From assembly GCA_018822435.1 (NCBI GenBank), contig JAHJKD010000050.1, positions 1,531-65,530 of the forward strand: a stretch of DNA of 64,000 nucleotides. Direction: 5' to 3'. The translations under genes and the position numbers were made by a program. Source of the stretch: Patescibacteria group bacterium (GTDB lineage: Bacteria > Patescibacteriota > Patescibacteriia > UBA9570 > JAHJKD01). Under the pieces are notes generated by a model. That model ran no database searches and was not told the origin of the DNA. It worked only from the letters and a program-made list of their open reading frames with translations. Every line of letters starts with the position of its first letter. Within the stretch, counting starts at the first letter, position 1. Positions 1,973-53,023 of the stretch are shown piece after piece.

Positions 1973-2053
1973 TTATTTATGATAATTAATATTATTAGAT
2001 TTATATTTTACCATTCCGCTGATAATTTCTCAAGATATTATCAATGGGATGGG

Positions 2054-2086
2054 GGAGTTCGGAAAAGGAGGGGGAAACCGAACTCC
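2054..2086 (-). terminator. GC-rich hairpin downstream of the aminotransferase-like gene
   Basis: Perfect 9-bp inverted repeat GGAGTTCGG...CCGAACTCC with a 15-nt loop, about 30 nt past the stop codon. No clean U-tract follows. Confidence 0.4.
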
Positions 2087-2116
2087 GGGTGGGAAAAGGA
2101 AGGAAGGCGCCGCACA

Positions 2117-3265
2117 TCAGATCTCCGACGGATCCGGGACATCCGTATGCCACTCCGCGGGAATCTCGAATCCAGGCAGGAGCCGTTCGACCGTAGGCAT
2201 GTCCCGCCGGACCATGGCCCAGTAGGACTCGGCTGCTTTCGCCAGGAGGGGATGGGGCTCGCCGCGCCGTGCGAACGGGGCATCGATGGGCTTGGGATTG
2301 AGGCTGCGTTCCAGCCATTCGAGGTAGGCGTCGCCCTCGCCGTCATGGAAGACTCCCAGAGGCGGGTTCTCGTTGGTGGCTCGCATCACGGCCTGTACGG
2401 GCACGAAGCCGGACCAGGATCCAGAGACCGAAAATCCCTCGGCCTCGACCAGTTCGTGGCGGCTGACAGGCTTCTCTGCCACCGTGACACCCATGTGCTC
2501 GAAGATCTTGATCATGGTGGCCCGCGTCAGCCCGGGCAGGCACCACGAGTGCAGGTCAGGCGTGACCACGGTGTTCTCGTCCTGGAAGACGAAGAACAGG
2601 TTGGATCCGGTCGTCTCAGCCAGATCGTCTCCTTCGTGCGTCATGCCCAGGACTTCGTTGCAGCCGTACCACTTGGCCACCACGCCCTTGAACTTGGCGC
2701 CCAGGGGGTAGTTGGCCGCCGACTTGATGTGCGGGTAGCCGTTGTAGGGGCTGGCCCGCCGGAACAAACGTCCCGGGAAAAGCAAGTTGATGCCGAATTC
2801 GCCCTCAGGCAGTTTGAGGTACTCAGTCAGATCACGCGTGATGATCTGCCAGTCGGCCGTGCCCGTGGCGTGCACCCCGAGCTCTTCGCCCCAGGCCCCG
2901 CCGAAGATGCGGAGGTACACGTCCTGGGCCTGAGTCAGCTCAGCTGCGTTCAAAGAGGCAATCTTGACCATGGCCGTCAGAACTTGCTCGGCCGTAGGAA
3001 TCGTCTCCCGCGGCAAGCCCAGGGCCATCATATTCCGAACCAGTCGCCGAGCGTGGTCCGGACCGCGGAAGATGCGCCGCTTGCCGTCCGCGCACATCCA
3101 GGCTCCGGCCCCGCCGAAGATGCGTGTGCCGTAGTGGCCGTCGTGCCGGTACGGGCTGTGCCCGATCCCGCCGGTCTCGCGAATCTCGCCCTGGACGATC
3201 ATGTGGGTGTGATGGTAGGAACCATCCGCACCCTCGAAACTGTAAACCAAAGGCTTGACGCCCAT
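2117..3265 (-). CDS. Class IV (BCAT/DAAT-fold) aminotransferase-like protein; GC-rich island gene
   Basis: 382-aa ORF. The segments HDGHYGTRIFGG, HIKSAANYPLG and TGSNLFFV...TPDL...LPGLTRATMIKIFEHMGVTVAEKPVSRHEL...SGSWSGFVPV align in my reading with IlvE-type HALHYGTSVFEG, AAKAGGNY and GENLFEV...PGITRD...E. SD-like GGAAGGA lies about 10 nt upstream. The fully overlapping plus-strand ORF 1946..3289 is treated as a GC shadow. Confidence 0.75.
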   Translation of the reverse strand: MGVKPLVYSFEGADGSYHHTHMIVQGEIRETGGIGHSPYRHDGHYGTRIFGGAGAWMCADGKRRIFRGPDHARRLVRNMMALGLPRETIPTAEQVLTAMVKIASLNAAELTQAQDVYLRIFGGAWGEELGVHATGTADWQIITRDLTEYLKLPEGEFGINLLFPGRLFRRASPYNGYPHIKSAANYPLGAKFKGVVAKWYGCNEVLGMTHEGDDLAETTGSNLFFVFQDENTVVTPDLHSWCLPGLTRATMIKIFEHMGVTVAEKPVSRHELVEAEGFSVSGSWSGFVPVQAVMRATNENPPLGVFHDGEGDAYLEWLERSLNPKPIDAPFARRGEPHPLLAKAAESYWAMVRRDMPTVERLLPGFEIPAEWHTDVPDPSEI

Positions 3266-3405
3266 TTTCTTTTCCTTCCGTTAATGTGAGTTGTCAATTA
3301 ACTTTCTTATAATAAAACAGACCCCTCCTTTTTAGAACTCCTTTTTGGTCTGTATTAGCTTGTTTAAATTACTGGAAATACTAAAAAAAATCAAGCTTAA
3401 GTGAT

Positions 3406-3434
3406 TTGACATAAGCCAGGTAAAATAATAAGCT
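3406..3434 (+). promoter_or_regulatory. Sigma70-like promoter for 3475..4332
   Basis: TTGACA (3406-3411), 17-nt spacer, TAAGCT (3429-3434). Confidence 0.45.
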
Positions 3435-3474
3435 TTGGCCACCTTGACAACCTACCAAAAGGAGGGGGAAACCC

Positions 3475-4332
3475 ATGAAACTCACGACCGCACTGGTCAT
3501 CGCGTCCGCCATCACCTTCACTCCGTTTTGCTTCGCACAGATGGATGAAGGGCCCGAACCCGGGGCTGTCCGGTCACCGGGCGAGCCTGTCGACATGTGC
3601 CGCAGCCTTTATGGCTGGGTGCCCTGTTCCGAGGATATGGAGATCACTCATGTCTGTTTCGACCGGTCTTCCAGCTTCAACTGCCTTGACTGCACCATCA
3701 CCATGGCCCTGCTCGGCGTTCTCGATTCCGACCCGCAGAGCATGATCAACACGACCGCCGGCTGCCTCATGAACAACTTCACCCCGGAAGCCTGGGCCGA
3801 ACTCGAACACTGGGAGAAAGACTACACCAGCTCCCTGGGCCCGGCCTTGGCTGGCAAGGACATCGCCGACCTGCTCCAGAACAGTGTTTACATGGCCCGG
3901 TTTGCTTCCTACAATCTCATCTGCAAAGACAAGACCGAGGTGATCCCAGAATCCTTGACCGAGTACGTCACTTTCTGGCGAGAATCCTCCTGGGATGATC
4001 GCGCCCCCTTGCCGGTCATGATCGCCGAAGCTGCTTTTGAAGAGCATCTTGAAGCTCAAGCCTACCTCTTCTCCTTCAACTGCCTCGCCTTTTACCCGCG
4101 CACGCGTGGCAGCCCGCCCATCTACTTCACCCCGGAAGAAGACAGCGAAGCCGAACTTGGAGCCGCCTTGGTTGCTTTCCTTGCCCATCAAAAAATCACG
4201 GCCATCGCCGTGATCAAGGACTCGCCGGAGCAAGCTGCTCTAGAAGCCAAGGACTGGAAGGTCTGTCCTTCTGCCGCCACTGACAACTTCAACGTCGTCA
4301 TCCCCCCACCGATCGTCTACCACTTCCTCTGA
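3475..4332 (+). CDS. Secreted hypothetical protein; GC-rich island gene
   Basis: 285-aa ORF with signal-peptide-like N-terminus MKLTTALVIASAITFTPFCFAQ. Strong SD AAAAGGAGGGGGAAACC ends 1 nt before the ATG. GC-ending codons throughout. No family recognised. Confidence 0.7.
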   Translation: MKLTTALVIASAITFTPFCFAQMDEGPEPGAVRSPGEPVDMCRSLYGWVPCSEDMEITHVCFDRSSSFNCLDCTITMALLGVLDSDPQSMINTTAGCLMNNFTPEAWAELEHWEKDYTSSLGPALAGKDIADLLQNSVYMARFASYNLICKDKTEVIPESLTEYVTFWRESSWDDRAPLPVMIAEAAFEEHLEAQAYLFSFNCLAFYPRTRGSPPIYFTPEEDSEAELGAALVAFLAHQKITAIAVIKDSPEQAALEAKDWKVCPSAATDNFNVVIPPPIVYHFL

Positions 4333-4353
4333 TGCCGTCAAGGCACCTCATCG

Positions 4354-4386
4354 CCTCGGCAGTCTGCTACCCGCATTCTGCCGAGG
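4354..4386 (+). terminator. GC-rich hairpin after 3475..4332
   Basis: CCTCGGCAG (4354-4362) pairs with CTGCCGAGG (4378-4386), 22 nt after the stop. Confidence 0.45.
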
Positions 4387-4457
4387 CCGCCCACTTCTTG
4401 ACTTTTAAACAAAAATATGATAAAATTATTATAATAAAAAATCATTAATATAATTTT

Positions 4458-5973: not shown

Positions 5974-7508
5974 ATATTTTTTACCATATAATTATCCTCT
6001 AAATTATAACCCAATTTTCGATAATAGTCCCTTACACCTACTCCGGAGATAACCCAAAGATTGTCATGGCCAGCTTTCTTAGTCAGAGCTTCTGCTTCAG
6101 CCAATAATTTCTTGCCGAAACCAAAATGCTGGACTGCCTTTTCGCCTTTTGCCAGCTCCAGCATCTGCCCATAAGTATGAAGCTCACGAATAAAAGCTTT
6201 TTCTCCCAATCTCAATCGACAAAAAGCAAATAAATATTTTTCATCAGAAGATTCATAAGTTAAAAATATTTCTTTACCGCCTGAAGCCACATAGCCTCTT
6301 TTTACTAACTTGGCCTCACTCAAATCTACTTTAGCCTCACGCGGCTCTCTACATCTGATGCATTTGCACTCAACTCCCCCATCTTGAAGTAATTGCCTCA
6401 AATTAGACACAGTGCTTCCCGCCACGATCGACTCCTGGGGAATATCGCGAATTAATCTCGCAATCCTGACATACTCAGGCATCTCTTTCTTTACCTTTTT
6501 AAGCAATCCTACCAATTCTTCAGTAGTATATGGCTTATACTTTCCCTCTTTATACCATTTATATAATTCCGATCCTTTCGTGACTACGCACGGATAAATT
6601 TTAATCTGGTCTGGCTTAAAATCCGGATTTGTAAATAACTCCCGGAACATCTTATGGTCCTTATCCAAATCAGAGCCCGGCAGATTCGGCATCATATGAT
6701 AAGTTATTTTAAATCCGGCATCTTTTAATAATTTAGTCGCTTGAATAGTTTGCTCTACTCTATGCCCTCTCTGGTTTAGGTCTAAAATATCATCATAGAC
6801 AGTTTGCACGCCCAGCTCGACCCGAGTCGCCCCAAAATCTAACATACGCTGCACTTCTTTTTCATCTACATAATCCGGCCTGGTCTCCAGAGTTAGCCCC
6901 ACCACTCTATGTTCTGCTGTCTCATTTAGTTTCTTAGCCTCTTCCAAATCTTTAGATTCTTTTTTATTATAACCATCATAACAACGCTTAATAAAATCCT
7001 CCTGATATTCCGGCGGCAAGCAAGACCATGTTCCGCCCATCACAATCAACTCACACTTATCTGTCGGATGACCATTGTCATACAAAGCCCGCAGTCTCAT
7101 TTCCACTTGCTTATAGGGATCAAACTCACATAAAACTGCCCGCATCACCGCTGGCTCATTAGAAAGATAAGATTTAGGCATGTCTTTTTCCGTAGGGCAA
7201 TAAACACATTTTCCCGGGCAAGGATGTTCGCGAGTTAAAACAGAAATCACTGCCACACCCGATAAAGTTCGGACATCTCTTTTTCGAAGCATTCTAAAAA
7301 GCTGTTCGTCTTCTTTTATCTCCCCTTTTTTTACTAGAGATCTATATGCCTTAAGAATTTCCGCATTTGTCGCCATGCCTGTGCCATCTTTCTTGGCAAT
7401 CTCTCCTTTTATACGTCGAAGCTGGATCACGTTCTTGGGCTTTTCTTTTATGGCTAATTTTACCAATTCTTCTAGGGCTTTTTTCATAGGGTTATTATAT
7501 ATGAACAT
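5970..7508 (-). CDS. elp3: Elp3-family radical SAM / GNAT acetyltransferase (tRNA U34 cm5-type modification enzyme homolog)
   Basis: 512-aa ORF. Radical-SAM cluster motif CPGKCVYCP, then a TIM-barrel-like region and a C-terminal GNAT motif QHFGFGKKLLAEAE. This is the Elp3 architecture. Confidence 0.85.
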   Translation of the reverse strand: MFIYNNPMKKALEELVKLAIKEKPKNVIQLRRIKGEIAKKDGTGMATNAEILKAYRSLVKKGEIKEDEQLFRMLRKRDVRTLSGVAVISVLTREHPCPGKCVYCPTEKDMPKSYLSNEPAVMRAVLCEFDPYKQVEMRLRALYDNGHPTDKCELIVMGGTWSCLPPEYQEDFIKRCYDGYNKKESKDLEEAKKLNETAEHRVVGLTLETRPDYVDEKEVQRMLDFGATRVELGVQTVYDDILDLNQRGHRVEQTIQATKLLKDAGFKITYHMMPNLPGSDLDKDHKMFRELFTNPDFKPDQIKIYPCVVTKGSELYKWYKEGKYKPYTTEELVGLLKKVKKEMPEYVRIARLIRDIPQESIVAGSTVSNLRQLLQDGGVECKCIRCREPREAKVDLSEAKLVKRGYVASGGKEIFLTYESSDEKYLFAFCRLRLGEKAFIRELHTYGQMLELAKGEKAVQHFGFGKKLLAEAEALTKKAGHDNLWVISGVGVRDYYRKLGYNLEDNYMVKNI

Positions 7509-7535
7509 CGAATTTTAGACGAACTCGAATTAGTT
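7509..7535. repeat. Left arm of the 27-bp inverted repeat flanking the GxxExxY gene
   Basis: CGAATTTTAGACGAACTCGAATTAGTT. The reverse complement of 8356-8382 is CGAATTTGGGACGAACTCGAATTAGTT, giving 25/27 identity with an 18-bp perfect core. Confidence 0.85.
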
Positions 7536-8324
7536 CCTAATAAAATTCCAATTTAATCTTGTCCTATTGAAGTTTGCAATTAATCCTAGCTTAATATTAA
7601 AATATTTCAAGTTTTTCTTCATTTTTTCAATTTCAATTTCTGATATTTCTTTCACTGCTAAAACTCTAACTAATATTTTATTTTCAATAAAAAATAATTT
7701 TACATCGCTTTCCCCAAGGATTTCTCCCTTAAAAGACATGGATTTTTTCTTTTTATACAAAAAGGGAATGCCATTATTTCTTAATTCTATCCATAAGGCC
7801 CTTCTATATACATAATGAAAAAATCCTGGCCCTAAAATTGAATGAACTATTAATAAACAATCAAGAACATCTTTCGATAATCCTGGATAAAGCAAATCAG
7901 GTTTAATAGTTATTTCATTTTTTGGTTTAAAATTTTTATTTTTTAATTTTAAATTATTTATAACTCTCTCATACTGTGCCTTTTCTGATCCAAAATTCAT
8001 TAATATTCCTAAGGAGTAATCAGTAACTTTCAAATAAGAAATTAATTGGGCGATATTAATAGGATGAATTTCATCTCGCGCCTTCAATTCTAAAATTATT
8101 TTATCTTGCACAACAATATCAGGACGACAAAATCCTATTTTATGTCCTTTATAAAGCATGTCTAAAGGTTTCTCTAAAACAAAATTAATTTTCTTTTTGT
8201 TTAAACCAATCGCCATTGCTTTCTGATATATTTCCTCTTTATGTCCTGGGCCAATTTTATTATAAACATCATAATAGACACCTTGTACTAAATAAGATAA
8301 TTCCGGAAAAATAATTTCAGTCAT
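7530..8324 (-). CDS. Tandem GxxExxY-domain protein (PD-(D/E)XK nuclease-like superfamily)
   Basis: 264-aa ORF made of two homologous halves. The first half carries GHKEEIY (GxxExxY). The second half is degenerate (GFFHYVY). Confidence 0.75.
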   Translation of the reverse strand: MTEIIFPELSYLVQGVYYDVYNKIGPGHKEEIYQKAMAIGLNKKKINFVLEKPLDMLYKGHKIGFCRPDIVVQDKIILELKARDEIHPINIAQLISYLKVTDYSLGILMNFGSEKAQYERVINNLKLKNKNFKPKNEITIKPDLLYPGLSKDVLDCLLIVHSILGPGFFHYVYRRALWIELRNNGIPFLYKKKKSMSFKGEILGESDVKLFFIENKILVRVLAVKEISEIEIEKMKKNLKYFNIKLGLIANFNRTRLNWNFIRN

Positions 8325-8355
8325 AAAATATATGGATAATTAATAAATAATTAAA

Positions 8356-8382
8356 AACTAATTCGAGTTCGTCCCAAATTCG
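8356..8382. repeat. Right arm of the 27-bp inverted repeat flanking the GxxExxY gene
   Basis: AACTAATTCGAGTTCGTCCCAAATTCG, the partner of 7509-7535. Confidence 0.85.
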
Positions 8383-8512
8383 GTGTTCATATTCCTCATA
8401 CCAATTCGCGCCCGCGTATGATTCGCGGTAGTCTTCGCGATTGCCAATAAAAAAACGCCCAATGTTTGCCATTTGGACGCCGTAGTTATATATTAAAGGA
8501 AAGAATAACATT

Positions 8513-16573: not shown

Positions 16574-16596
16574 AAAATAATTATACAATAAAAAAT

Positions 16597-16619
16597 ACCG
16601 TCTATCAAGCAGACTTTTT
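16597..16619 (+). terminator. Conserved hairpin family, degenerate copy 0
   Basis: ACCGTCTATCAAGCAGACT plus a T-run. It keeps the CTATCAAGC loop region of the family. Confidence 0.45.
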
Positions 16620-16690
16620 CCTTGACTATATCTCAATAAAAAGCTAAAAATACCCCACCACCCGTACCACCACCAAGGAGGAAAAAATCC

Positions 16691-16948
16691 ATGAAAGCGA
16701 GAATCATCGACCCTGGCACAAATTCTTTGGTCCTCTGGCTCATAGTCGAGGTGAATGAAGGCGAAATCGCCATCAAGCCCAGTAAAGGGGGGATCGAAGT
16801 AGCTGTGTTCGTCTCCGGCTGGTTTCCGGACACAATCATCGGGGAGACTGAGGTGCCGGAAGATTTGGTCGAGAAGGCAGTCGCCCATCTCCGGACCAAG
16901 CACGAGCTCGACCAGCTGGCCAACCAGCTCAAGGAGATCCTGCGCTGA
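16691..16948 (+). CDS. Hypothetical 85-aa protein; GC-rich island gene
   Basis: SD AAGGAGG lies 9 nt upstream. TTGACT-N17-TAAAAA(T) promoter at 16622-16651. GC-ending codons. Followed by an imperfect GC hairpin (about 16950-17000) and family hairpin copy 1. Confidence 0.6.
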   Translation: MKARIIDPGTNSLVLWLIVEVNEGEIAIKPSKGGIEVAVFVSGWFPDTIIGETEVPEDLVEKAVAHLRTKHELDQLANQLKEILR

Positions 16949-17026
16949 GTGGAGGGGGCGGGCGGCGGCTCATCAAAAAGCTGCCGTCCTCCCTCCAATC
17001 TAGTAACAATCACTTCATATAAAAAC

Positions 17027-17053
17027 GGCCCGCCTATCAAGCGAATTTTTTTT
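17027..17053 (+). terminator. Conserved hairpin family, copy 1 (right arm degenerate)
   Basis: GGCCCGCCTATCAAGCGAA followed by T8. Confidence 0.5.
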
Positions 17054-17115
17054 ATTCTTGTAAAAAAAGGATTTTTGTAGTATAAAGGAACCACCTAAGT
17101 ATTTACTTCAAACAT

Positions 17116-17934
17116 ATGAAAAAAATATTCTTATTCCCTATTCTGGGCATTTTATTATTTACTATTAATTTCTTAGCGACTCCTTCAACCAAAGCATTTA
17201 GCACCGCCACTCATCCCATAGTTATAGATAATATATTAATGGGAGGATCGGGAAATGATGTTTGGATAGATGCTTCATATGGTAAGTATTGGGATTTAAA
17301 AGGAAAAAAATACAAGTTGTATAAAATGCGTTCTTATATTGGCAAAGGTACGGGCAGTGGAATATACCAAGGCCCTCCATCCATGACAGAAATTGTGAGA
17401 ATGAAAAATAATGGGACATATCTGAATAATTTTGTGGCCATCAGAAGCAATTGGAAATTTTTCCCTCAAAAGATAAGGAAGGGCAGTAAAAAATCTCCTA
17501 CTTATAAAAAAGTTATCAAAAAAATATTACGCAGGAATGATTTAGGCCATTTAAAGCCAAAGATCAAACAAATTTACAAAGTTGACCTGGATGGTAATGG
17601 CACCAAAGAAAAAATTATTCATGCTTCCAATATTGATTTTAATAATCCAAATTACTATCAGGAAAAAAATACTTATTCAGTCGTATTTGTAAGAAAGTTA
17701 GTAAATGGAAAAAAGAAAAATATTATTTTGAGGAAAAGCTTTTACACAGAAGACGGAGATTTTGAAGACGGCCCTACATATTCGCATCGCATCCGCGCTA
17801 TCGGCGATTTTAACGGGGATGGAAGAATGGAGGTCGTAGTTGAGACAAGATACTATGAAGGAACTGGATTTTCAATCTTTGAAGTAAAAAAGAAAAAAGC
17901 CGTGCCTGTACTCAGTAACGGCTCAGGAGCATAA
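17116..17934 (+). CDS. Secreted protein with a C-terminal FG-GAP/VCBS-like repeat
   Basis: 272-aa ORF with signal peptide MKKIFLFPILGILLFTINFLATPSTKA and IGDFNGDGRMEVVVE near the C-terminus. Confidence 0.6.
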   Translation: MKKIFLFPILGILLFTINFLATPSTKAFSTATHPIVIDNILMGGSGNDVWIDASYGKYWDLKGKKYKLYKMRSYIGKGTGSGIYQGPPSMTEIVRMKNNGTYLNNFVAIRSNWKFFPQKIRKGSKKSPTYKKVIKKILRRNDLGHLKPKIKQIYKVDLDGNGTKEKIIHASNIDFNNPNYYQEKNTYSVVFVRKLVNGKKKNIILRKSFYTEDGDFEDGPTYSHRIRAIGDFNGDGRMEVVVETRYYEGTGFSIFEVKKKKAVPVLSNGSGA

Positions 17935-17946
17935 TATAAATAAAAC

Positions 17947-17971
17947 GACCCGCCTTCCAAGCGGGTCTTTT
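17947..17971 (+). terminator. Conserved hairpin family, copy 2
   Basis: GACCCGCCTTCCAAGCGGGTC plus TTTT, directly after the stop. Confidence 0.7.
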
Positions 17972-18023
17972 CTTATTTAAAAAAAATATGATATTATTAC
18001 ATTGAAAGGAATAAATTATATTT

Positions 18024-18761
18024 ATGGCAAATAATATGGAAGGGCGACGGCCAGCTCAAGAGCTGGAGTCAGCCAAAAATGTTACTAAAGAAGAGCTGGA
18101 AAAAATCGCCAAGAAAAAATTGAATTTTATGGTGAAAAAGGATGGATTAATTCTTGCTAGCTCGTTTGAAGATCTCAATTTGGGGGATGATGCCCAAGAC
18201 ACTGAAGGCAGTCCTTATGAATGGTTCCAAATCTTTGATGAAAAAGACCATCCCTACCGAATTGAAGGTAATGATGTCGTTCTTTATCGGAAGGAATGTC
18301 ATGGAAAAGGAAGAATTGAGAACGTTTATCATCGCGGCACCGATGTTTGGATAGTGAACCCAAAGAACGAACTCATGGTCCCTGTTAGAAGTGCAAAAAA
18401 AGACCTCTACTCCTCTATGGGAGACAACAGTGTAAGTGAACATAATAGCATAAGAGAGCCGTATTTAGGCACTGCCGTTAGGGGTTTCCAAGAAGAGCTT
18501 GGAATATCGGTCCCCCCTGAAGGACTATCCCTTGTGTGCAAATTTCCAGTGCATGATAAAAATCAATGGCAATGGTCTCAATATTACGTATTTCCCGATA
18601 AAGAAGGAAAATATAATCCGTCTGAAGAAGAAATAGGGGAAGTCCGCTGGATTCCCTTACAAAATTTATTTACAGAGGAAGGGATAAAAAAAATAAATTT
18701 TCGACTAGACCATTTACCCGCTCTAAAAGTATTTCTAGAAAAAATAAAAAATAAAAAATAA
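18024..18761 (+). CDS. Nudix hydrolase (IDI-like subfamily)
   Basis: 245-aa ORF with a Nudix box region GTAVRGFQEELGI and an upstream ...HRGTDVWIVNPKNELMV... layout. Confidence 0.7.
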   Translation: MANNMEGRRPAQELESAKNVTKEELEKIAKKKLNFMVKKDGLILASSFEDLNLGDDAQDTEGSPYEWFQIFDEKDHPYRIEGNDVVLYRKECHGKGRIENVYHRGTDVWIVNPKNELMVPVRSAKKDLYSSMGDNSVSEHNSIREPYLGTAVRGFQEELGISVPPEGLSLVCKFPVHDKNQWQWSQYYVFPDKEGKYNPSEEEIGEVRWIPLQNLFTEEGIKKINFRLDHLPALKVFLEKIKNKK

Positions 18762-18766
18762 AAAAA

Positions 18767-37413: not shown

Positions 37414-37554
37414 TTATTTTTCCTTCAATTTCTGCAAATCAAAAACGGCCTTGCCTGAGACTTTCATTTTAGGCTTTTTTGTTTTCTTCTGCTGCCGTCG
37501 TTTTGACTTGGCTTCAGCTTTCTTTTCTAACTCATGAGAGTGGTTGTTCTTCAT
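37414..37554 (-). CDS. Small basic protein (46 aa)
   Basis: Below the track threshold. My translation is MKNNHSHELEKKAEAKSKRRQQKKTKKPKMKVSGKAVFDLQKLKEK. It ends at the pcrA hairpin. Confidence 0.35.
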   Translation of the reverse strand: MKNNHSHELEKKAEAKSKRRQQKKTKKPKMKVSGKAVFDLQKLKEK

Positions 37555-37668
37555 GAGTGTATTATATAAAACGAACTAGAATTTGAAAAGAAGGAGGGGG
37601 AGGATTTCGGGAGGGGGAGGAGGATCCGAGGGGTTATGCCGAAGCAAAACCACACGGACCTCCTTCCC

Positions 37669-37998
37669 CTATGGGAGAACAAATCGGAACAAACAAGTGT
37701 CCCCAGCCACGACCACCTTGCGGGGGTCATAACCGTCTGCCCATGAGATCCCCCGAAGGGTTTCCCACAAAAAAATATCGTCTCCCAACGTACATGCTTT
37801 CAGCATGATCATGTAGTAGGACTGTCCCACGTACACGATTTTGCCTTCTGCACGCACGCCCCCCACCAACGCTACTGTCTCCTCCGAAGGGACATCCTCC
37901 GAATACTCGAAGACCAGAACGAGCGTATCGTCCGTAGTCCTCATAGCGTCGACATTTTGGGGGGTGGAGCATTCTCCCGAAGGCTGCGTGGCCAACAT
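37669..37998 (-). CDS. Hypothetical 109-aa protein; GC-rich island gene
   Basis: SD AAGGAGG lies 7 nt upstream of the ATG. GC-ending codons. Overlapping ORFs on both strands are shadows. No family recognised. Confidence 0.6.
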   Translation of the reverse strand: MLATQPSGECSTPQNVDAMRTTDDTLVLVFEYSEDVPSEETVALVGGVRAEGKIVYVGQSYYMIMLKACTLGDDIFLWETLRGISWADGYDPRKVVVAGDTCLFRFVLP

Positions 37999-38063
37999 CT
38001 CTCTGCCTCCTTTAAATACTCACCCCCTTGCAGGGGGCTATGCGGCTTGATTGCCGACGGTAA

Positions 38064-38092
38064 AACTTACAATTTTTCTTGAATTAAGTCAA
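38064..38092 (-). promoter_or_regulatory. Sigma70-like promoter for 37669..37998
   Basis: Minus strand TTGACT (38092-38087), 17-nt spacer, TAAGTT (38069-38064). Confidence 0.4.
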
Positions 38093-44055: not shown

Positions 44056-44095
44056 TGTAGTGTAGGGACAACCCTAGGGTTGTCCCTACACTACA
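44056..44095. repeat. Perfect 40-bp palindrome, GTAG-type (REP-like), copy 1
   Basis: TGTAGTGTAGGGACAACCCT|AGGGTTGTCCCTACACTACA. It shares its outer 15-bp arms with 56245-56285. Confidence 0.9.
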
Positions 44096-44106
44096 GGTAT
44101 TTCATA

Positions 44107-45006
44107 ATGGATAACCTAGAAAATTCCATCCTTAAAACCCTCACATACTTCGATCTTTTCGACTACCCTTTAACTTTGCTGGAAATTCAGAAATGGTTAT
44201 GGGAAACAAAAGAGGAAGATCTTAATAAAATCAAACAAGTCTTAAACAATAGCCCTCAAATAGAAAGCCGCGAGGGCTTTTATTATTTACAGGGACGGGG
44301 CGACATTGTGCGAAAAAGAAAAAACCGTTATGTCGTGGCCCAAAAAAAATTCAAGAAAAGACTTCCCTATATCCGCCTGCTTACCTGGCTGCCCCATGTC
44401 AAAGCTATTTTTGTGGTAAACAACCTGGCTATTGCCAATGCCGGCACAAACAGCGACATTGACCTCATGATCATCTCCCCGGACGATAAAATATGGACCA
44501 CGCGCATGTTTACGACCACGCTCATGAAAATCTTCGGCCTCCGTCCTACGCAAGAAAAAAACAAAGACCAACTTTGCTTAAGCATTTACCTCACGGAAAA
44601 AAATCTAAATCTGGAAGATTATAAAATTAATCCGGACGACATCCATTTCACTTACTGGGCAGATCAGATCTTCCCGGTTTATGACCCAGACAACCTGGAA
44701 AAAAAATATATTAAGGCTAATGCCTGGATTAAAAACAAGCTGCCCGCTTCAATTGGATATCAGGCTGCCTGGCCTCGCACTATTAATCGATCCGGCTTAA
44801 ATAGATTTATGCAGTCTTTCTTAAGTCTGGCTTCTTTTGAAAATGCTTATAAAAAATGGCAGCTGAAAAATCTGCCCCAAAACCTGAAAGACATGATGAA
44901 TAAAGATACCAGAGTAGTTGTCAACGACAAAATTTTAAAATTCCATGACAATGACCCCCGAGCAGAAATCCTCCAAAAGTGGGAGCAAAAAATCCAACAA
45001 ATTTGA
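44107..45006 (+). CDS. Hypothetical protein with a nucleotidyltransferase-like core
   Basis: The track start at 44080 (TTG) lies inside the palindrome. ATG 44107 (MDNLENSILK...) is preferred. GTNSDIDLMII resembles an NTase G[ST]-x(n)-DxD motif. Confidence 0.6.
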   Translation: MDNLENSILKTLTYFDLFDYPLTLLEIQKWLWETKEEDLNKIKQVLNNSPQIESREGFYYLQGRGDIVRKRKNRYVVAQKKFKKRLPYIRLLTWLPHVKAIFVVNNLAIANAGTNSDIDLMIISPDDKIWTTRMFTTTLMKIFGLRPTQEKNKDQLCLSIYLTEKNLNLEDYKINPDDIHFTYWADQIFPVYDPDNLEKKYIKANAWIKNKLPASIGYQAAWPRTINRSGLNRFMQSFLSLASFENAYKKWQLKNLPQNLKDMMNKDTRVVVNDKILKFHDNDPRAEILQKWEQKIQQI

Positions 45007-46465: not shown

Positions 46466-47281
46466 TTATGACAATTTCTTATTCTGAGGTTTTTTAAGAT
46501 AATTATTTTTAATTGAAATCTTTTTTCCCGTACGTTTCTCAATGTCCTTACGGGTAGATCCGGCTACTTCACCGCCTTCTTTAGCATCTTTTTTTAATGG
46601 TTTGAAAGATTTGGACTCTTTGTCTTGAGTTAATCTGGTTGTTGTCGCTTCACCCAGCATTGTCAGGATCAATTCCAAATCATCCATATGATCCCTTAGA
46701 TTCTCACGCTGTAAATTCTTAAACTTTTTATACTCCTCCGGCGACATGTCAAAAGTGGCCTTAGAAATTTCTGAAGTCAAAATGGCGTATTCCCTCGCTT
46801 GTTTTAGCCCTCTTTTACTCCACTCATCAGTCAGCTCTTCCCGCACAGCAATGCCCCTCATCCTCTTCTCAATCCAGGAGTCACTATATCCCTTGGCTTT
46901 ATATAGCGCCTTTGTCCTTTTTGTTGCCAATTCCGGATCTTCAATTTCTTTGATCCTTTCATAGCCAACTCTGGCTAGCCAACGCTTGAAAGGTTCGGCT
47001 TTAGGCGAAGGGATTGATTGGATAATACGAAATATCCCCTCTGTATTGGCGCAATTCATCTCTTGTTTGCCGCCTTTAGTGCCTATTTCAAGGGTGTGTA
47101 CAATTTGTACCCACCCCTTAGCTATTTCTGCGTCTCTCTGCTTCATCCGTTGTATATATTGTTTTGCGTCCCGAGAATCAATTAATGCTAAAACAACATC
47201 TTCAACAACAAACCACCATTCATTATCATGAATAGTCCTTCTCACTTTTTTCCCTTTAAAAATCGCAATTTTATTATTCAT
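46466..47281 (-). CDS. Bro-N domain / DinD-like (phage antirepressor-type) protein
   Basis: 271-aa ORF. IHDNEWWFVVEDVVLAL...NTEGIFRIIQSIPSPKAEPFKRWLA is characteristic of Bro-N/DinD proteins. Confidence 0.75.
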   Translation of the reverse strand: MNNKIAIFKGKKVRRTIHDNEWWFVVEDVVLALIDSRDAKQYIQRMKQRDAEIAKGWVQIVHTLEIGTKGGKQEMNCANTEGIFRIIQSIPSPKAEPFKRWLARVGYERIKEIEDPELATKRTKALYKAKGYSDSWIEKRMRGIAVREELTDEWSKRGLKQAREYAILTSEISKATFDMSPEEYKKFKNLQRENLRDHMDDLELILTMLGEATTTRLTQDKESKSFKPLKKDAKEGGEVAGSTRKDIEKRTGKKISIKNNYLKKPQNKKLS

Positions 47282-47637
47282 CTAATTTTATTTTAAATGA
47301 TTATATTAATTATAACAAAAATAAATAAAAACACCCGGATTTTTTTGGGTGTTCTGAATTTAACATATAAATTTTTATATCTCAAATTTAACACAAAATT
47401 TGAAATATGGCAAATCCTTATTTCAAGTAAAATTTAATTAACTATTATATAAAATAGACAAAATTTAAACTGCCACCGAGAACTTCCTTTGTGTATGACA
47501 GTCGCTGCTGTCGCTGAGGGAGGCGTGGACACCGTCATCAGGAAGATGATGTTCGGAAATGGGTTGTGGTGTCTCTGAGGGCAAGTACGGAGCAGACTTC
47601 TTCCTCCAGCTGGCGAAGAAGTAGAAAGGAGGAGGCC

Positions 47638-47736
47638 ATGTCTCATTCACGAGCCGGGCCAACAGACTCGCCAGCGGAGGCCTCAAGCCAAGAATCCCTG
47701 GTGAGTCTCCGTAAAATTATTACATTTTTAAAATAA
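47638..47736 (+). CDS. Candidate 32-aa peptide at the 3' end of a GC-rich segment
   Basis: AAAGGAGGAGG SD precedes the ATG at 47638. Translation is MSHSRAGPTDSPAEASSQESLVSLRKIITFLK, with the stop just before hairpin ACCCGA-ATATCA-TCGGGT plus a T-run. The competing minus-strand ORFs 47465..47686 and 47434..47646 lack any SD. Confidence 0.25.
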   Translation: MSHSRAGPTDSPAEASSQESLVSLRKIITFLK

Positions 47737-47774: not shown

Positions 47775-47816
47775 GTTGCGGGGGGCGGATTCGAACCGCC
47801 GACCTGATGGTTATGA
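47775..47816 (-). repeat. Orphan copy of the 3' half of tRNA-Met (att-like direct repeat)
   Basis: 42/42 identity with 49829-49870 (GTTGCGGGGGGCGGATTCGAACCGCCGACCTGATGGTTATGA). It covers the tRNA 3' end up to the anticodon loop. Confidence 0.9.
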
Positions 47817-47994
47817 AGATTGGGACCCCTCATCAACCAATTTGGCTAACCTAAGTCATTTATAGCTGAGCTCAGCTAAAATTTACCCACCTATCATTTT
47901 CTCAAGCATTCCCAAACTTGATCAAATGTACTCAATCATCATCACTTCGTGGGCAACTGGTGGGCAACGCTTTTTAAGAAAGTAATTATTAATT

Positions 47995-48204
47995 ATGAAA
48001 ACCAATCACAATGAATCCAAGCCATTGGATGAATCTCTCTTAACCGTAAGCCAAGTTGCGAAGCTGTTGAATCTTTCCAAAACAACAATCTATCGTCTGG
48101 TTGAGACGCGACAAATTCCACACTACAGAATTTCCGGGTCTCTCCGCTTTTCACGGAAAGAGATAGAAGAATATTTAAGGCAAGAAAGCTACAGATCTCC
48201 CTAG
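47995..48204 (+). CDS. Excisionase/AlpA-type (MerR-superfamily) HTH DNA-binding protein
   Basis: 69-aa ORF. LLTVSQVAKLLNLSKTTIYRLVETRQIPHYRI...RFSRKEIEEYL matches the helix_turn_helix_17/Xis pattern. Confidence 0.75.
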   Translation: MKTNHNESKPLDESLLTVSQVAKLLNLSKTTIYRLVETRQIPHYRISGSLRFSRKEIEEYLRQESYRSP

Positions 48205-48296
48205 AACCCAATTTAGAAAATTTTTATATTTCCTGCCTACATTGACAAATAGCAAATCTTTCTTAAGATAAATGTACTTATTTTTAACACAATATT

Positions 48297-48839
48297 ATGA
48301 GTGTAAAATTTTTAAAGAGCTTTGATGATTATTGCGAAGAGCACACATCAAAGGAAGATGTAAACGAAGCAATTAAAAATCCAGATAAAGTGACCAGAGA
48401 AGATATGGGTAATCAGCAATCCCTGTTCTTTTTGAAACATTTCTCTGAAGGCGAAAATGAATATTACATTCTTGCCTGCGCTACCAAAAAGGAAGATGAA
48501 ACTAGTGTATATGCCGCTTTTTATCTGCCACCGGAATTTGATAGTCAACTATCTAAAATGGATGCAATAGATGTAATGGTGGCTGTGGCCGAGGCATTTG
48601 GTTTAGAGGCAACTAGCGGTTCAGCCAAATCTAAGTTTATTCATCATCAGACCTATTGGACTGACAACGATAATTCTATACCTTTTATAGAAGGATTTCA
48701 GCCAGGTGATAAAAAAATGATATGTCAAACGTGGTTTAAAAAAGAGCCCCACGGAAGCAAAGTTCGTATCGAAATTCATACTGCTTTTTGCATCAATATG
48801 GATATTTATTACGAATGGCTACATTCTATTAAAAGATAA
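48297..48839 (+). CDS. Hypothetical protein (180 aa)
   Basis: ORF with TTGACA-N17/18 promoter at about 48243. No family recognised. Confidence 0.55.
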   Translation: MSVKFLKSFDDYCEEHTSKEDVNEAIKNPDKVTREDMGNQQSLFFLKHFSEGENEYYILACATKKEDETSVYAAFYLPPEFDSQLSKMDAIDVMVAVAEAFGLEATSGSAKSKFIHHQTYWTDNDNSIPFIEGFQPGDKKMICQTWFKKEPHGSKVRIEIHTAFCINMDIYYEWLHSIKR

Positions 48840-48849
48840 GAATAAGAAC

Positions 48850-49701
48850 TCATGCTAAAATATATTTCTTTATATAAACATCTAACTCTATCCAATTAAC
48901 CAAGGGCCTATTAAATTTTTGTATAATTGGTTCGACTTCCTTCGCTATAATATTATTTTTAATCAAGAAATACATTTGTGAGAATTTTCCTCTGTTCTCA
49001 TTATCTTGTTCTTCCCAACTTATTATCACTCCAAGGATATTCTTGTTTGAAGATAAAAATAGCTGGACTGGTATAGACATCTCTGCCAAGCCTGGTTTTA
49101 GAATCCAGTGCTGAGGTACTCTAAGAAATATAATTCCTAAGTTTTCTTTTCGAATTTGTTCAGCTGCTTTCTCACAAGGTTTTACTATTGATTCTTCAGA
49201 ATAGGGGGTAGTTTCAGATTTATTTTTTACCTCACATCGTATTTCAGGAGTAGTCTTTAAAAGTATATCAAAATTTTTATCTTTATCCTTATCTTTATCA
49301 GCGATAACAAACTCAAATGGTAAATTTCTTCTGAAGAAATGAGCACCACCACCCAATTCAGCAAATCGCGAAGTTAGATTTCCTCTTTTTATATGCTTAA
49401 CAACAGAGTCTATCCCCTCAACATGCTGCATGTTGTAAACCATTTCAGCTAAATCAGTAACCCGATTTTGATGGACAAATCCCATTTTCTTTGTGAGTAG
49501 AAACACCCTAGCTTCTTCTGTTTGTTGTGGATGCCGGCTATGTTGCATAAAAAGCGTTTGATTGGCCCATTCGTTTCTTATCATTCTTCTTATCAATTCT
49601 ATTGAGACGGCGCTCCTATAGAAATCAAACTTTTCTTTTGGGAGCTTGTTTTTTATTGTTTGGCATAATTTTTTTATTTCTGCCTCACTGACTTTTTCCA
49701 T
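48850..49701 (-). CDS. Hypothetical protein with a possible PD-(D/E)XK nuclease motif
   Basis: 283-aa ORF. NFDILLKTTPEIRCEVKNK fits D-x(n)-E-x-K. The call is tentative. Confidence 0.5.
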   Translation of the reverse strand: MEKVSEAEIKKLCQTIKNKLPKEKFDFYRSAVSIELIRRMIRNEWANQTLFMQHSRHPQQTEEARVFLLTKKMGFVHQNRVTDLAEMVYNMQHVEGIDSVVKHIKRGNLTSRFAELGGGAHFFRRNLPFEFVIADKDKDKDKNFDILLKTTPEIRCEVKNKSETTPYSEESIVKPCEKAAEQIRKENLGIIFLRVPQHWILKPGLAEMSIPVQLFLSSNKNILGVIISWEEQDNENRGKFSQMYFLIKNNIIAKEVEPIIQKFNRPLVNWIELDVYIKKYILA

Positions 49702-49829
49702 ATGTTTCTTATTAATAATTACCCACTACTTATTTTATCATGTTCAATTACAATAATAACAACATAATATAATTGTAGTTTTTAGGTGTGATTTGATTTA
49801 ATCAGTAAACACCGATGAGGGACTTCTTG

Positions 49830-49901
49830 TTGCGGGGGGCGGATTCGAACCGCCGACCTGATGGTTATGAGCCACCCGAGCTGCCACTGCTCCACCCCGC
49901 G
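49830..49901 (-). tRNA. tRNA-Met (anticodon CAT), initiator-like
   Basis: Minus-strand sequence CGCGGGGTGGAGCAGTGGCAGCTCGGGTGGCTCATAACCATCAGGTCGGCGGTTCGAATCCGCCCCCCGCAA. A C1:A72 mismatch and the CGCGGGG acceptor match bacterial tRNA-fMet. CCA is not encoded. TTGACA-N17-TAATAT promoter at about 49958-49986. Confidence 0.88.
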
Positions 49902-50955: not shown

Positions 50956-52214
50956 GTGAATGGCTCTTATATATTTTTGCCTTCTTGCTTCCCTGGCAAA
51001 CCCGGTGGATTTTTTTTGAAGGTGAAATAAATAATGGCTTCTGGGAATATGGCTCTTATAGTTTGTATGGTTTTGATATTATATTGTTTCTTCTGCTCAT
51101 CATTACAATCATAGTCGGAAAAAAGAAAAACTTTTTCATCAATCGATTTAGTCTGGCTGCTCTTGGCCTTCTCCTGGTTGCCTTTTTCTCTCTCTACTGG
51201 GCCCTGGACAAAGAAATCGCCCTATATGCTTTTACCCGCCTGCTGGCTGCCATGCTGCTTATTATTATTGTCTGGCAGATCAAATTCAAGCCTCTTTTTC
51301 TGGCTGGCGCCATTGCATTGGCCGGAGTATTTCAATCTATTCTCGCCACCTGGCAATTTTTCACACAAAAAGCTGTGGCCATAAAATTTTTAGGCATGGC
51401 TGAACACCTACCCTGGATCCTGGGGGATCAGGTTATTGAATTTACCGGCGGCCGAATGCTCCGGGCTTATGGCTCTTTTCCGCATCCCAATATTCTAGCC
51501 GCTTTTCTCGCTATCGCTGTCATTCTCTCTATTGGTATTTATTTAAAATCAACTAATAAATGGGGTAAGTATTTTGCTCTGGCTTCTCTGGTAATAAATT
51601 CTGCCGGATTATTCTTTACTTTCTCCCGCGCCGCCTGGATCGGCTTATTTATTACTTTGCTTTTTTATGGTTTGCTGATCTTCTGGATCTACCATCGCCG
51701 TGAGCTGACATATATAAAATTATTCACTGCTATTCTTCTGCCGTTTATTTTGCTGACTGCCATTTATCCTAATCTCGTTTTAACTAGATTCGGATTAGGA
51801 GAAGATTTTCAGAGATTAGAGATAAAATCTATTGAACAGCGGGCCGATTATACGGAACAATCATTGGAAATCATTAAAGCCAATTTCATGACTGGTGTTG
51901 GCATTGGCAATTATACCTGGACCTTGCATGAACAAGTTGATAAACATTTGGAATCTTATGATTATCAGCCTGTCCATAATGTTTATTTACTTGTCTTGGC
52001 TGAATTAGGAATATTTGGATTATTATTTTTTATATATTTAATCGCGGCTGTATTATTGAAAATTGATTTGAAATCTCGTCTTAATCTGGCTTTTGCCATG
52101 TGCTTCTTGTTTTTCGCCTTTATCGCTTTTTTCGACCACTTCCTCTGGACTATGGCGATTGGACTTTATCTTTTCTTTTTGATATTCGCCGTCAACAGTA
52201 AATATAGTAATTAG
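50931..52214 (+). CDS. O-antigen ligase (Wzy_C) family membrane protein
   Basis: 427-aa polytopic ORF with FSRAAWIGL in a central loop region. Its last codons lie inside the MITE-like repeat. Confidence 0.7.
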   Translation: MRQIIAKIGEWLLYIFAFLLPWQTRWIFFEGEINNGFWEYGSYSLYGFDIILFLLLIITIIVGKKKNFFINRFSLAALGLLLVAFFSLYWALDKEIALYAFTRLLAAMLLIIIVWQIKFKPLFLAGAIALAGVFQSILATWQFFTQKAVAIKFLGMAEHLPWILGDQVIEFTGGRMLRAYGSFPHPNILAAFLAIAVILSIGIYLKSTNKWGKYFALASLVINSAGLFFTFSRAAWIGLFITLLFYGLLIFWIYHRRELTYIKLFTAILLPFILLTAIYPNLVLTRFGLGEDFQRLEIKSIEQRADYTEQSLEIIKANFMTGVGIGNYTWTLHEQVDKHLESYDYQPVHNVYLLVLAELGIFGLLFFIYLIAAVLLKIDLKSRLNLAFAMCFLFFAFIAFFDHFLWTMAIGLYLFFLIFAVNSKYSN

Positions 52215-52428
52215 GATCACGAAAATTCGAAAAAACGAATTTCTCGAAGGTATTAACTTCATTTATATTGTAATGGCTGATGACTATTTTGTTGGGAATT
52301 TATATTACAGAAATCTTTTCGGCTTATTAAATAATTTCACTTTAAAATTAGTCCAAAGGCGCTTATTAATTTATAAGAGTAATTACCTTCGAGTTTTTCG
52401 TAACTTCATGCTTTCGTGATCCAAATTT
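52204..52428. mobile_element. MITE-like element, copy 1
   Basis: ATAGTAATTAGGATCACGAAAATTCGAAAAAACGAATTTCTCGAAGGTA...TACCTTCGAG...TTTCGTGATCCAAAT. It has imperfect terminal inverted repeats of about 44 bp (about 31/44 paired by my count) and no ORF. Confidence 0.7.
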
Positions 52429-52526
52429 CCCCTAAACGAAATAGAGCCCGTGACATGCACAGAATAGCGTCATAAAATTCACGATAATTTCAGAATAAAT
52501 AATTTGCTTATTTTCTCTGAAACGAT

Positions 52527-52563
52527 GGGATGAAAGACGGACGCTGGGTCCGTCTTTCATCCC
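52527..52563 (-). terminator. 16-bp perfect GC hairpin downstream of 52592..52888
   Basis: GGGATGAAAGACGGAC-GCTGG-GTCCGTCTTTCATCCC. Confidence 0.55.
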
Positions 52564-52591
52564 AAACAGGAAACCGCTCTTCCGGCAAGCG

Positions 52592-52888
52592 TCAGAGCCT
52601 CTCGATGATCCCGCCGGGTCCATGGGGGCCGTAGCCGTGGCCGTCCAATGACCCGATCAAGGCCCGCAGCCTGTCCGCCTTCGCGACTTTGCTGCGGACA
52701 ATGCTCATGATCCCTTCCCAGACGGCCTGGCGCTCGTCGTCTTCCAGAGCCATGAAAACTTCATAACTGCGGGCAGTGAAGCTTTCATCCGCCATCAGGG
52801 AAACCGGATCATCAGAACTGGAATCAATTGACTCACACACCTGCTCGAAAAAACTCGCCAAAATCTCACGATTATCAGATTTAGCCAA
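52592..52888 (-). CDS. Hypothetical acidic 98-aa protein; GC-rich island gene
   Basis: TTG start with SD AAGGAGG 8 nt upstream. GC-ending codons. No family recognised. Confidence 0.55.
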   Translation of the reverse strand: MAKSDNREILASFFEQVCESIDSSSDDPVSLMADESFTARSYEVFMALEDDERQAVWEGIMSIVRSKVAKADRLRALIGSLDGHGYGPHGPGGIIERL

Positions 52889-52921
52889 TTAGGTTGCCTC
52901 CTTTCTTCCTGTTGAAGACTT

Positions 52922-52951
52922 AGCTTACCAAGAAAGGCAAAAAAAAGTCAA
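52922..52951 (-). promoter_or_regulatory. Sigma70-like promoter for 52592..52888
   Basis: Minus strand TTGACT (52951-52946), 18-nt spacer, TAAGCT (52927-52922). Confidence 0.4.
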
Positions 52952-53023
52952 TAAATCCCTTAAAATAAGGGGAATTTTACCCTCTTGACGCAATTTTTAA
53001 ATTTGTTAAGATAATATCATTGC

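Follow-up and report, generated by a model that had tools for sequence, protein, structure and literature searches.

A 64-kb window (41.4% GC) of contig JAHJKD010000050.1, from a Patescibacteria group bacterium, carries eight short units, islands 1 to 8 (I1 to I8, Table 1), which are mostly GC-rich, are led by a Shine-Dalgarno (SD) sequence and lie scattered along an AT-rich housekeeping chromosome whose own genes almost all do without one. The pattern is real and statistically clear, and it is neither an artefact, fresh host DNA nor a new capture mechanism. We favour, with moderate confidence, the reading that the islands are a clade-specific class of autonomous single-gene accessory modules, similar to phage morons, which circulate in the clade by DNA uptake and recombination. 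Such a module consists of a sigma-70-type promoter (TTGACW, 17 nt, usually TAAGNT), a 35-120-nt leader, a strong SD, one open reading frame (ORF) and a GC-rich stem-loop that lacks a U tract. The products are a branched-chain aminotransferase (BCAT)-like protein, a secreted protein rich in cysteines, a small membrane protein and several others that are small and acidic.

The nearest species-level genome is GCA_043821615.1 (TrpS and UvrA 83%), and the next named group is Candidatus Kerfeldbacteria (UvrA ~73%). The 49 backbone genes of the window have a GC content at third codon positions (GC3) of 0.377 +/- 0.063, with a maximum of 0.566. An earlier reading of the sequence, the preliminary description, had named eight backbone genes as lacking an SD (glyA, trpS, groES, groEL, recA, uvrA, pcrA and efp). 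Their duplex energies with the 16S 3' tail fall between -3.2 and +2.3 kcal/mol, and 48 of the 49 backbone genes have no SD (mean energy -1.1 kcal/mol, sd 3.2). The bases before backbone starts are A-rich and G-poor, with A at -5 in 73% of genes, T at -1 in 67% and the A enrichment spanning positions -8 to -5. The -10 boxes of backbone TTGACW promoters hold only A and T, and backbone terminators are of the canonical A-tract/U-tract type. Neither 16S rRNA nor the bS21, bS18 or bS6 genes lie within the window. The sole SD-led backbone gene encodes a MamF-like membrane protein. Its SD reaches -12.9 kcal/mol and is kept in three lineages, the window and two loci fetched from relatives (L095 17978-18307, L097 20097-20432). 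As this gene is of backbone composition, its conserved SD suggests that the clade's ribosomes can use SDs.

The islands differ from this backbone in several ways. Six island ORFs have GC3 values of 0.645-0.815, with z scores of 4.3-7.0 against the backbone, and all six show the order GC3 > GC1 > GC2 expected of real genes. Eight GC-rich coding segments had been described. These six hold up and I7 survives as a GC-rich remnant, but the I4 ORF does not belong, as its GC3 is backbone-like. I4, which encodes an 81-aa membrane protein, is GC-rich only in its structured 5' leader (~100 nt, z -2.9) and its 3' hairpin. The SD-like strings that had been quoted for the eight units are all present, with duplex energies of -9.0 to -12.3 kcal/mol in seven units and -6.3 at I1. 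An energy of -9 or below is thus reached by 7/8 units vs 1/49 backbone genes (Fisher p = 2.4e-7). The promoter said to be shared by four units was also recovered: TTGACW-N16-18-TAAGNT has five matches where 0.17 are expected, four of them upstream of I2, I4, I6 and I8 and the fifth at 48242, inside an element integrated at tRNA-Met. Every 3' hairpin quoted earlier folds strongly (z -2.0 to -6.4), in most cases with no U tract. The window has five GGAGGGGG runs (1.45 expected), all of them at island edges.

The GC peaks are not structured RNAs, because Rfam and ARAGORN find two tRNAs only in the window, and we rejected non-coding RNA as their explanation. A common leader motif, TTGACAAC, was also dropped (3 occurrences vs 1.4 expected, not significant), as was an SD-sequestering leader hairpin as a general feature of the units, being clear only at I5, where CUCCU-GAA-AGGAG in the leader pairs with the SD (leader z -3.1; terminator z -4.2), and at I7. 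Seven of the products had been said to match no recognised family, and Pfam, NCBIfam, PADLOC and PHROGs indeed give a family for I1 only (Aminotran_4). Predicted structures have pLDDT (predicted local distance difference test) scores of 38 (I5) and 33 (I2).

Table 1. Positions in the window of the island units, their parts and an SD-led backbone gene. GC-rich blocks are from a 100-bp scan; z scores of GC3 are against the backbone genes.
Feature	Position	Strand	GC-rich block	ORF GC3 (z)	Details
I1 unit	2051-3356	-	2031-3271, 62.9%		1306-bp insertion between the divergent glyA and I2 promoters; exact breakpoints against L091
I1 left-end (3') hairpin	2054-2086				9-bp stem, z -2.4; holds inverted-repeat arm 2054-2073 and 17-mer AAAAGGAGGGGGAAACC
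I1 ORF	2117-3265	-		0.815 (7.0)	382 aa; divergent class IV (branched-chain-type) aminotransferase; Pfam Aminotran_4, E = 1.5e-19
I1 inverted repeat, right-end arm	3322-3341	-			GGAGTTCTAAAAAGGAGGGG; 18/20 match to 2054-2073
I2 promoter and leader	3406-3474	+			TTGACA-N17-TAAGCT; leader CCACCTTGACAACC...AAAAGGAGGGGGAAACCC; invariant elements in four lineages
I2 ORF	3475-4332	+	3431-4415, 57.7%	0.738 (5.8)	285 aa; predicted secreted protein; signal peptide, seven conserved cysteines; hypervariable allele
I2 3' hairpin	4353-4387	+			-31.3 kcal/mol, z -5.9; kept in L091
I3 unit	16622-16997	+	16728-17045, 56.9%	0.733 (5.7)	promoter 16622-16651; SD; ORF 16691-16948 (85 aa); hairpin 16950-16997 (z -6.0)
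I4 unit	19615-20052	-		0.40 (0.4)	promoter 20052-20024 (TTGACA-N17-TAAGGT); SD; ORF 19678-19923; hairpin 19615-19646
I5 unit	20697-21261	-	20684-21167, 58.3%	0.803 (6.8)	promoter 21261-21233 (TTGACA-N17-TATACA); SD; ORF 20758-21153 (131 aa); terminator 20697-20722
I6 unit	37614-38092	-	37570-38069, 54.0%	0.645 (4.3)	promoter 38092-38064 (TTGACT-N17-TAAGTT); leader hairpin CCCCCUUGCAGGGGG; SD; ORF 37669-37998 (109 aa); 3' hairpin 37614-37668
I7, probable truncated unit	47470-47736	+	47470-47724, 54.5%		GC-rich leader; SD AAAGGAGGAGG; 32-aa ORF 47638-47736
I8 unit	52526-52951	-	52513-52823, 58.5%	0.657 (4.5)	promoter 52951-52922 (TTGACT-N18-TAAGCT); SD; ORF 52592-52888 (98 aa, TTG start); hairpin 52526-52564 (16 bp, z -6.4)
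MamF/DUF4870-like membrane protein gene	55857-56186	+			native SD-led control gene; 109 aa; backbone composition; SD GAAGGGAGGTG

Evidence for exchange comes from the glyA locus, which we compared with three relatives, L091 and L100 from ERZ24794666 and L092 from SRR17165146 (Logan SRR17165146_346794). GlyA of L091 is 84% identical to that of the window in amino acids (glyA GC3 0.21) and that of L092 90% (glyA GC3 0.79), while GlyA of L100 falls in the same 90% cluster as the window protein, with 84% identity of the glyA DNA (glyA GC3 0.36). All four lineages have an I2-family gene at the same site, divergent from glyA. The -35 box, the AATAAG(C/G)TT -10 region, CCACCTTGACAAC and the SD region AAAGGAGGGGGAAA(C/T)CCATG are invariant across the four loci, and a signal peptide and seven cysteines are common to all the proteins.

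The relationships of the I2 alleles contradict those of glyA. The window and L091 copies of I2 are 88% identical in amino acids, with a synonymous divergence (dS) of 0.55 and a nonsynonymous divergence (dN) of 0.056, against 84%, 2.7 and 0.106 for glyA. The L092 protein shares only 39% identity with the window copy, although GlyA shares 90%. At the nucleotide level L100 has the closest glyA, yet its partial I2 copy is only 43-47% identical. The window and L091 also have in common a derived 75-nt promoter spacer, with 46/46 identical bases adjoining the junction, whereas in L092 and L100 the -35 boxes are back to back. The conflict with glyA and the shared derived spacer together indicate that the I2 allele has been replaced laterally along with adjoining intergenic DNA, and lateral exchange is required because dN and dS of the window/L091 pair are both lower for I2 than for glyA. 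Scans of JGI metagenomes with the I2 leader pattern and with EF-P returned nothing.

I2 is GC-rich in all four lineages. Its GC3 is 0.74 in the window, 0.71 in L091, 0.87 in L092 and 0.65 in L100, in genomes where glyA ranges from 0.21 to 0.79, and synonymous sites of the backbone are saturated in every comparison (pS, the proportion of synonymous differences, 0.68-0.88). I2 substitutions polarised on L092 run from strong to weak base pairs (S>W) in 14 cases vs 1 in the opposite direction, a count confounded by the outgroup's GC3 of 0.87. L092 is itself GC-rich (54%); its glyA has a GC3 of 0.79 vs 0.38 in the window despite the 90% identity of GlyA, and its glyA, folD and PGM genes reach 0.75-0.83 at 80-90% protein identity to the window. 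The L092 locus is a mosaic, with a radical-SAM gene at GC3 0.48 and flanking genes at 0.75-0.87.

Such persistence could also reflect a vertically inherited, fast-evolving class of genes, whose GC content and SD are kept up not by import but by GC-biased gene conversion (gBGC) at recombination-prone loci, or by selection acting on translation or on the structure of the mRNA. The GC3 of I2 in the four genomes and its invariant leader are consistent with this, as are the GC3 of I6 in two genomes (see below) and the existence of SD-led genes of native GC content (I4, the MamF-like gene and genes of L099, a distant Patescibacterium). We consider this explanation unlikely, however, as I1 and I8 show clean presence/absence differences and the I2 alleles depart from the backbone tree, the window/L091 pair having dN and dS below those of glyA. 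Moreover, a GC3 excess of +0.3 to +0.5 is far beyond the gBGC effects reported for bacteria.

I1 has no counterpart at the orthologous site in any of the three glyA-locus relatives. L091 position 1521 joins window position 2050 to 3357, placing the insertion point inside the 75-nt spacer that separates the divergent glyA and I2 promoters. The indel is longer than the transcription unit, taking in ~90 nt upstream of the ORF as well as the flanking hairpin. Inverted repeats, 18/20 identical, lie 3 and 15 nt from the breakpoints, where 0.04 such pairs are expected by chance. The loop of the I1 3' hairpin contains a 17-mer, AAAAGGAGGGGGAAACC (2063-2079), that recurs without a mismatch as the SD region of I2 (3455-3471), so the loop of the I1 transcript would be complementary to the I2 ribosome-binding site.

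The repeats at I1 would fit islands that are non-autonomous transposable cassettes, resembling miniature inverted-repeat transposable elements (MITEs) or mobile insertion cassettes (MICs) and mobilised in trans. We regard this as very improbable. MITEs and MICs are marked by terminal inverted repeats, target duplication and multiple copies, but only I1 has the repeats, those of the other islands being at the level of shuffled controls. There is no target duplication at I1 in comparison with L091 and no further copy of its repeat ends in the window, in 99 fetched loci or in the viral collection, and no transposase was found. The preliminary description had seen no integrase or transposase adjacent to any unit. 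Pfam agrees, and the statement is qualified only by the I1 inverted repeats and by I7, which abuts a duplicated tRNA-Met 3' end and a Bro-N gene.

I6 and I8 extend the picture beyond glyA. L095 has a positional orthologue of I6 at 3969-4361 (130 aa, 34% identity, E = 4e-13), which is SD-led, has a GC3 of 0.60, shares the leader hairpin and is likewise flanked by G-rich sequence at its 3' side. In both genomes the unit lies between the same gene for a 46-aa basic protein and the same tandem promoters. In these two genomes, whose backbone GC3 is close to 0.38, I6 has a GC3 of 0.60-0.65. The neighbouring gene encodes a very basic protein (MKNNHSHELEKKAEAKSKRRQQKKTKKPKMKVSGK...; window 37414-37554, minus strand; L095 3737-3874) that has no NCBIfam match. 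L095 lacks the whole interval holding I8, 52215-52975; there ~10 nt separate the stop codon of Wzy_C from the groES promoter and CIRCE element, both of which are conserved. L097 has a different gene set in this interval, with I8 absent. The I8 indel takes in ~300 bp of AT-rich repeats. Near groES-groEL an ~83-nt repeat occurs in three copies (52203-52259, 52345-52427 and 55160-55248), two of them an inverted pair just upstream of I8. The groES promoter TTGACG-N17-TAAGAT and CIRCE operator TTAGCACTC-N9-GAGTGCTAA are kept in the window (53027-53053) and in L095 (15306-15332).

Relatives have private units of their own, at 10101-10364 in L092, 3969-4361 in L095 and 13930-14250 in L097. The L092 unit (87 aa, GC3 0.81, SD -13.0) lies where the window genome has a gap of 75 nt, and one L092 unit has a weak Lar-like match. 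Together with I1 and I8, these units show that modules are gained or lost whole in promoter-to-promoter gaps. I2 in four lineages and I6 in two show a different behaviour, fixed loci with a conserved promoter and leader whose coding part appears to have been swapped or to diverge fast, away from the backbone phylogeny. Repeated acquisition of single genes, as had been proposed, thus holds for I1 (absent from L091, L092 and L100) and I8 (absent from L095 and L097), for which empty sites exist, and does not describe I2 and I6, which occupy the same sites in four and two lineages.

The same comparisons bear on the suggestion that a transcript-sized capture mechanism is at work, in which foreign mRNAs are reverse transcribed and then integrated. 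The GC-rich part of the units does begin near the predicted transcription start and stop at the 3' hairpin. We give this idea hardly any credence, as the untranscribed -35 and -10 boxes are conserved with the unit in relatives, and the I1 and I8 indels exceed the transcription unit. A tails, target duplications and reverse transcriptase are absent from the window, and AT-rich promoters are in any case expected on functional grounds.

An assembly or construction artefact had also been considered. The compositional contrast, taken alone, would suit an assembly or binning chimera, but at the level of short-read assemblies this is refuted. Contigs of per-run Logan assemblies (SRR2544004, SRR2540949) and of three metagenome-assembled genomes (MAGs) at NCBI match the window with 100% identity from 1 to 44084, a span that includes I1-I6 together with their junctions. 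The same three MAGs, as well as Logan assemblies, contain the I8 protein. Homologous units were recovered at the same loci of relatives by unrelated studies.

The I1 protein falls under every NCBIfam equivalog cut-off and has BCATs as its best PDB relatives. It appears to retain the catalytic-lysine motif, reading IKSAANY against the motif of E. coli IlvE. Its subfamily is rare: when 5.8 billion clusters and 1.84 billion representatives were searched, only eight representatives of it came up at E < 1e-30, with 33-41% identity, and both named members are Patescibacteria. A 46-aa 'cluster mate' of I1 (P0004) was discarded as a clustering artefact on an unrelated contig. In L099, which has 34% GC, the I1-family gene has a native GC3 of 0.28, and it has a TTGACT-N17-TAATAT promoter, a ~55-nt leader and a strong SD. 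Two small neighbouring genes are also SD-led; polA and other genes there are not. As the L099 gene keeps its SD at native GC3, the SD goes with this class of gene and is more than a mark of foreign origin.

These results speak to the source of the islands. The preliminary description had raised a GC-rich, SD-using donor, possibly the physical host of an episymbiont, and recent, repeated transfer from such an organism outside the Patescibacteria, not yet ameliorated, would account for several features. Strong SDs and 3' hairpins that lack a U tract are typical of high-GC bacteria, island codon usage is of a general high-GC kind, the indels I1 and I8 are restricted to particular lineages, and I3, I5 and I8 are orphans, which stand alone in clustering at 90% identity and lack homologues in the fetched loci. 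We nevertheless find this origin rather doubtful. I2 and I6 are GC-rich at the same loci in every lineage that carries them, despite saturated dS, the promoter and leader are co-conserved with the gene, and the L099 gene has its SD at native composition. In the cluster searches homologues turned up only in Patescibacteria or on metagenome contigs, and no donor lineage could be identified among them; the well-sampled host phyla should have given matches. Codon usage singles out no donor either. The pooled islands correlate with unrelated high-GC Corynebacterium loci at r 0.79-0.86 and with L092 at r 0.66, and a match to GC-rich L092 was rejected as no better than that to Corynebacterium.

If the islands are circulating modules, their source may be other Patescibacteria and not the host. 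Most transfers into Patescibacteria come from other Patescibacteria, in which pili and competence genes are common (PMC12455944). Fixed loci would be exchanged by homologous recombination through their conserved flanks, and new insertions may arise by illegitimate or short-repeat recombination. The SD would belong to the module class and allow mRNAs that are GC-rich and structured to be translated in a cell geared to starts that are AU-rich and lack an SD. The high GC content may stem from repeated re-import out of a GC-rich reservoir, given that close relatives reach a GC3 of 0.79. Selection, or GC-biased repair where these loci recombine, may strengthen the effect.

Several points weigh against this picture of circulating modules. 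No donor genome was found, and because island codon usage fits Corynebacterium better than L092, a reservoir among GC-rich relatives is without specific support. The backbone genes of L092 themselves lack SDs, so a relative of this kind as donor does not explain the link between GC content and SD in the window. The GC-richness of I2 and I6 at orthologous sites needs frequent re-import, or else selection or biased repair; as backbone synonymous sites are saturated between all lineages, import alone hardly explains the persistence. Neither recombination machinery nor an uptake signal has been shown. The nearest GTDB species representative (TrpS 83%) gave no synteny for I3-I5, leaving I3, I4 and I5 without comparators.

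The pattern might instead mean that the units form a translationally and compositionally insulated class, actively maintained in SD-less Patescibacteria, with composition and SD as functional signals and not scars of transfer. These fast-evolving secreted or effector-like and small acidic proteins would be read only when the anti-SD is available, through a switch like that of bS21 in Bacteroidia, or would be adapted to a high-GC, SD-using partner cell. We hold this to be distinctly unlikely.

In Bacteroidia translation is SD-blind, and the few genes that are led by an SD, rpsU among them, make up a class of their own (PMC7797042, PMC9976891, PMC13000457). The backbone of the window is similar in its lack of SDs and its A-rich, G-poor upstream bases, and has a small minority of genes with a very strong SD; both the general lack of SDs and the A-rich signal are found here over the window. 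Unlike in Bacteroidia, the SD-led genes are mostly accessory and GC-rich, where Bacteroidia have a ribosomal gene that regulates itself. In Bacteroidia bS21, bS18 and bS6 sequester the anti-SD, which is not known for this clade. We infer that an SD may be needed to start translation on GC-rich structured mRNAs, in resemblance to the SD-led class of Bacteroidia.

Among known systems, the islands have much of their anatomy in common with phage morons, in which a single gene with its own promoter and terminator, of deviant composition and variable presence, lies between unrelated genes (the concept of Hendrix and Juhala). By their sequence signals the islands are likewise autonomous promoter-gene-terminator units, with predicted promoters at I2, I3, I4, I5, I6 and I8, that of I1 being ill-defined. 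They have been inserted without disturbing their neighbours, are compositionally distinct and are present or absent among relatives. Unlike morons, they reside in a housekeeping chromosome (glyA, trpS, pcrA, uvrC, groES, groESL) and not in a prophage, and two of the units are fixed loci with exchanged alleles. There were no PHROG matches to the islands, and neither the I1, I2, I5 and I8 proteins nor two DNA motifs matched the viral collection.

O-antigen (rfb) and capsule loci, which are compositionally atypical, hypervariable and replaced by flank-mediated recombination, offer a second comparison. Like them, I2 combines conserved flanks with alleles that are highly divergent and at odds with the backbone phylogeny, and its GC content remains atypical across lineages. 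It differs in being one small gene and not a multi-gene cluster, in having high GC in an AT-rich genome, and in that its own promoter and leader serve as the conserved 'flank'. Only I2 behaves as a hypervariable locus replaced through its flanks; I6, known from two lineages, is compatible with this.

The classical genomic islets, or recently transferred ORFans subject to amelioration (Lawrence and Ochman), are similar in that GC3 and codon usage are atypical, presence depends on the lineage (I1, I8) and the products are orphans, and six of the island ORFs have the atypical composition of an islet, with I4 failing to do so. The islands differ in having no mobility genes and one transcription unit each, and they have stayed GC-rich at orthologous sites although synonymous divergence is saturated, an outcome not expected from simple amelioration. 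Integron gene cassettes are promoterless ORFs with an attC site and an adjacent intI/attI. The islands share with them and with MICs the single-gene unit ending in a hairpin, and at I1 the inverted repeats at the ends. They have no integrase by Pfam, no attI/attC consensus and no array, and each unit has its own promoter and no end sequence or end repeat in common with the others.

I7 is probably a truncated unit, as judged from its sequence. Its leader is ~170 nt long and is followed by an ORF that runs into AT-rich DNA, and the ~80-aa gene described earlier is not there. It is bordered by a terminator, a tRNA-Met 3' fragment and the Bro-N gene. The 3' 42 nt of tRNA-Met (49829-49901, minus strand) are exactly duplicated (47775-47816 = 49829-49870), and the two copies bracket an element of ~2 kb with three ORFs (47775-49901), in which no integrase was detected. 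The Bro-N gene lies at 46466-47281, and the same region of L095 has an IS200-like Y1 transposase. At the position equivalent to I7, after tRNA-Met, L097 has an uncalled unit of 67% GC.

Other features of the window deserve mention. A 43-nt inverted repeat (88% complementary) at 7499-8392 surrounds a 26%-GC PDDEXK_3 gene (7530-8324). This unit is wholly missing from L092 and is an AT-rich counterpart of the GC-rich insertions. Near-identical bidirectional terminators (AAAACGACCCGCCTATCAAGCGGGTCTTTTTT) follow almost every gene of a 6-kb accessory stretch, 16588-22493, and occur also at 47736 and 56204. The reverse complement of their loop is a TTGATA -35 box, which the trpS promoter (16608-16580) appears to use. 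A perfect 22-nt palindrome (TTTGTAGTGTAGGGACAGAACA and its complement) lies at 56243-56287, with a related copy at 44081-44110; a Logan contig breaks at 44084.

Patescibacteria are ultra-small and largely uncultured episymbionts, and how their gene content is renewed is poorly known. By exact empty and filled sites, this locus shows complete single-gene expression units being added or swapped in the narrow gaps between housekeeping promoters, in the absence of visible mobility genes. The islands are best described as an extension of known single-gene lateral modules, distinguished by an unusual persistence of composition and SD use. They present three puzzles: an SD-led minority of genes in genomes otherwise without SDs, a GC-rich composition that persists at orthologous sites across lineages with saturated synonymous sites, and a glyA GC3 that ranges from 0.21 to 0.79 among relatives with 84-90% GlyA identity. 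Any of these could bear on the evolution of translation initiation, on the question of whether codon composition is shaped by selection or by biased gene conversion, and on the genes with which members of the candidate phyla radiation interact with their hosts.

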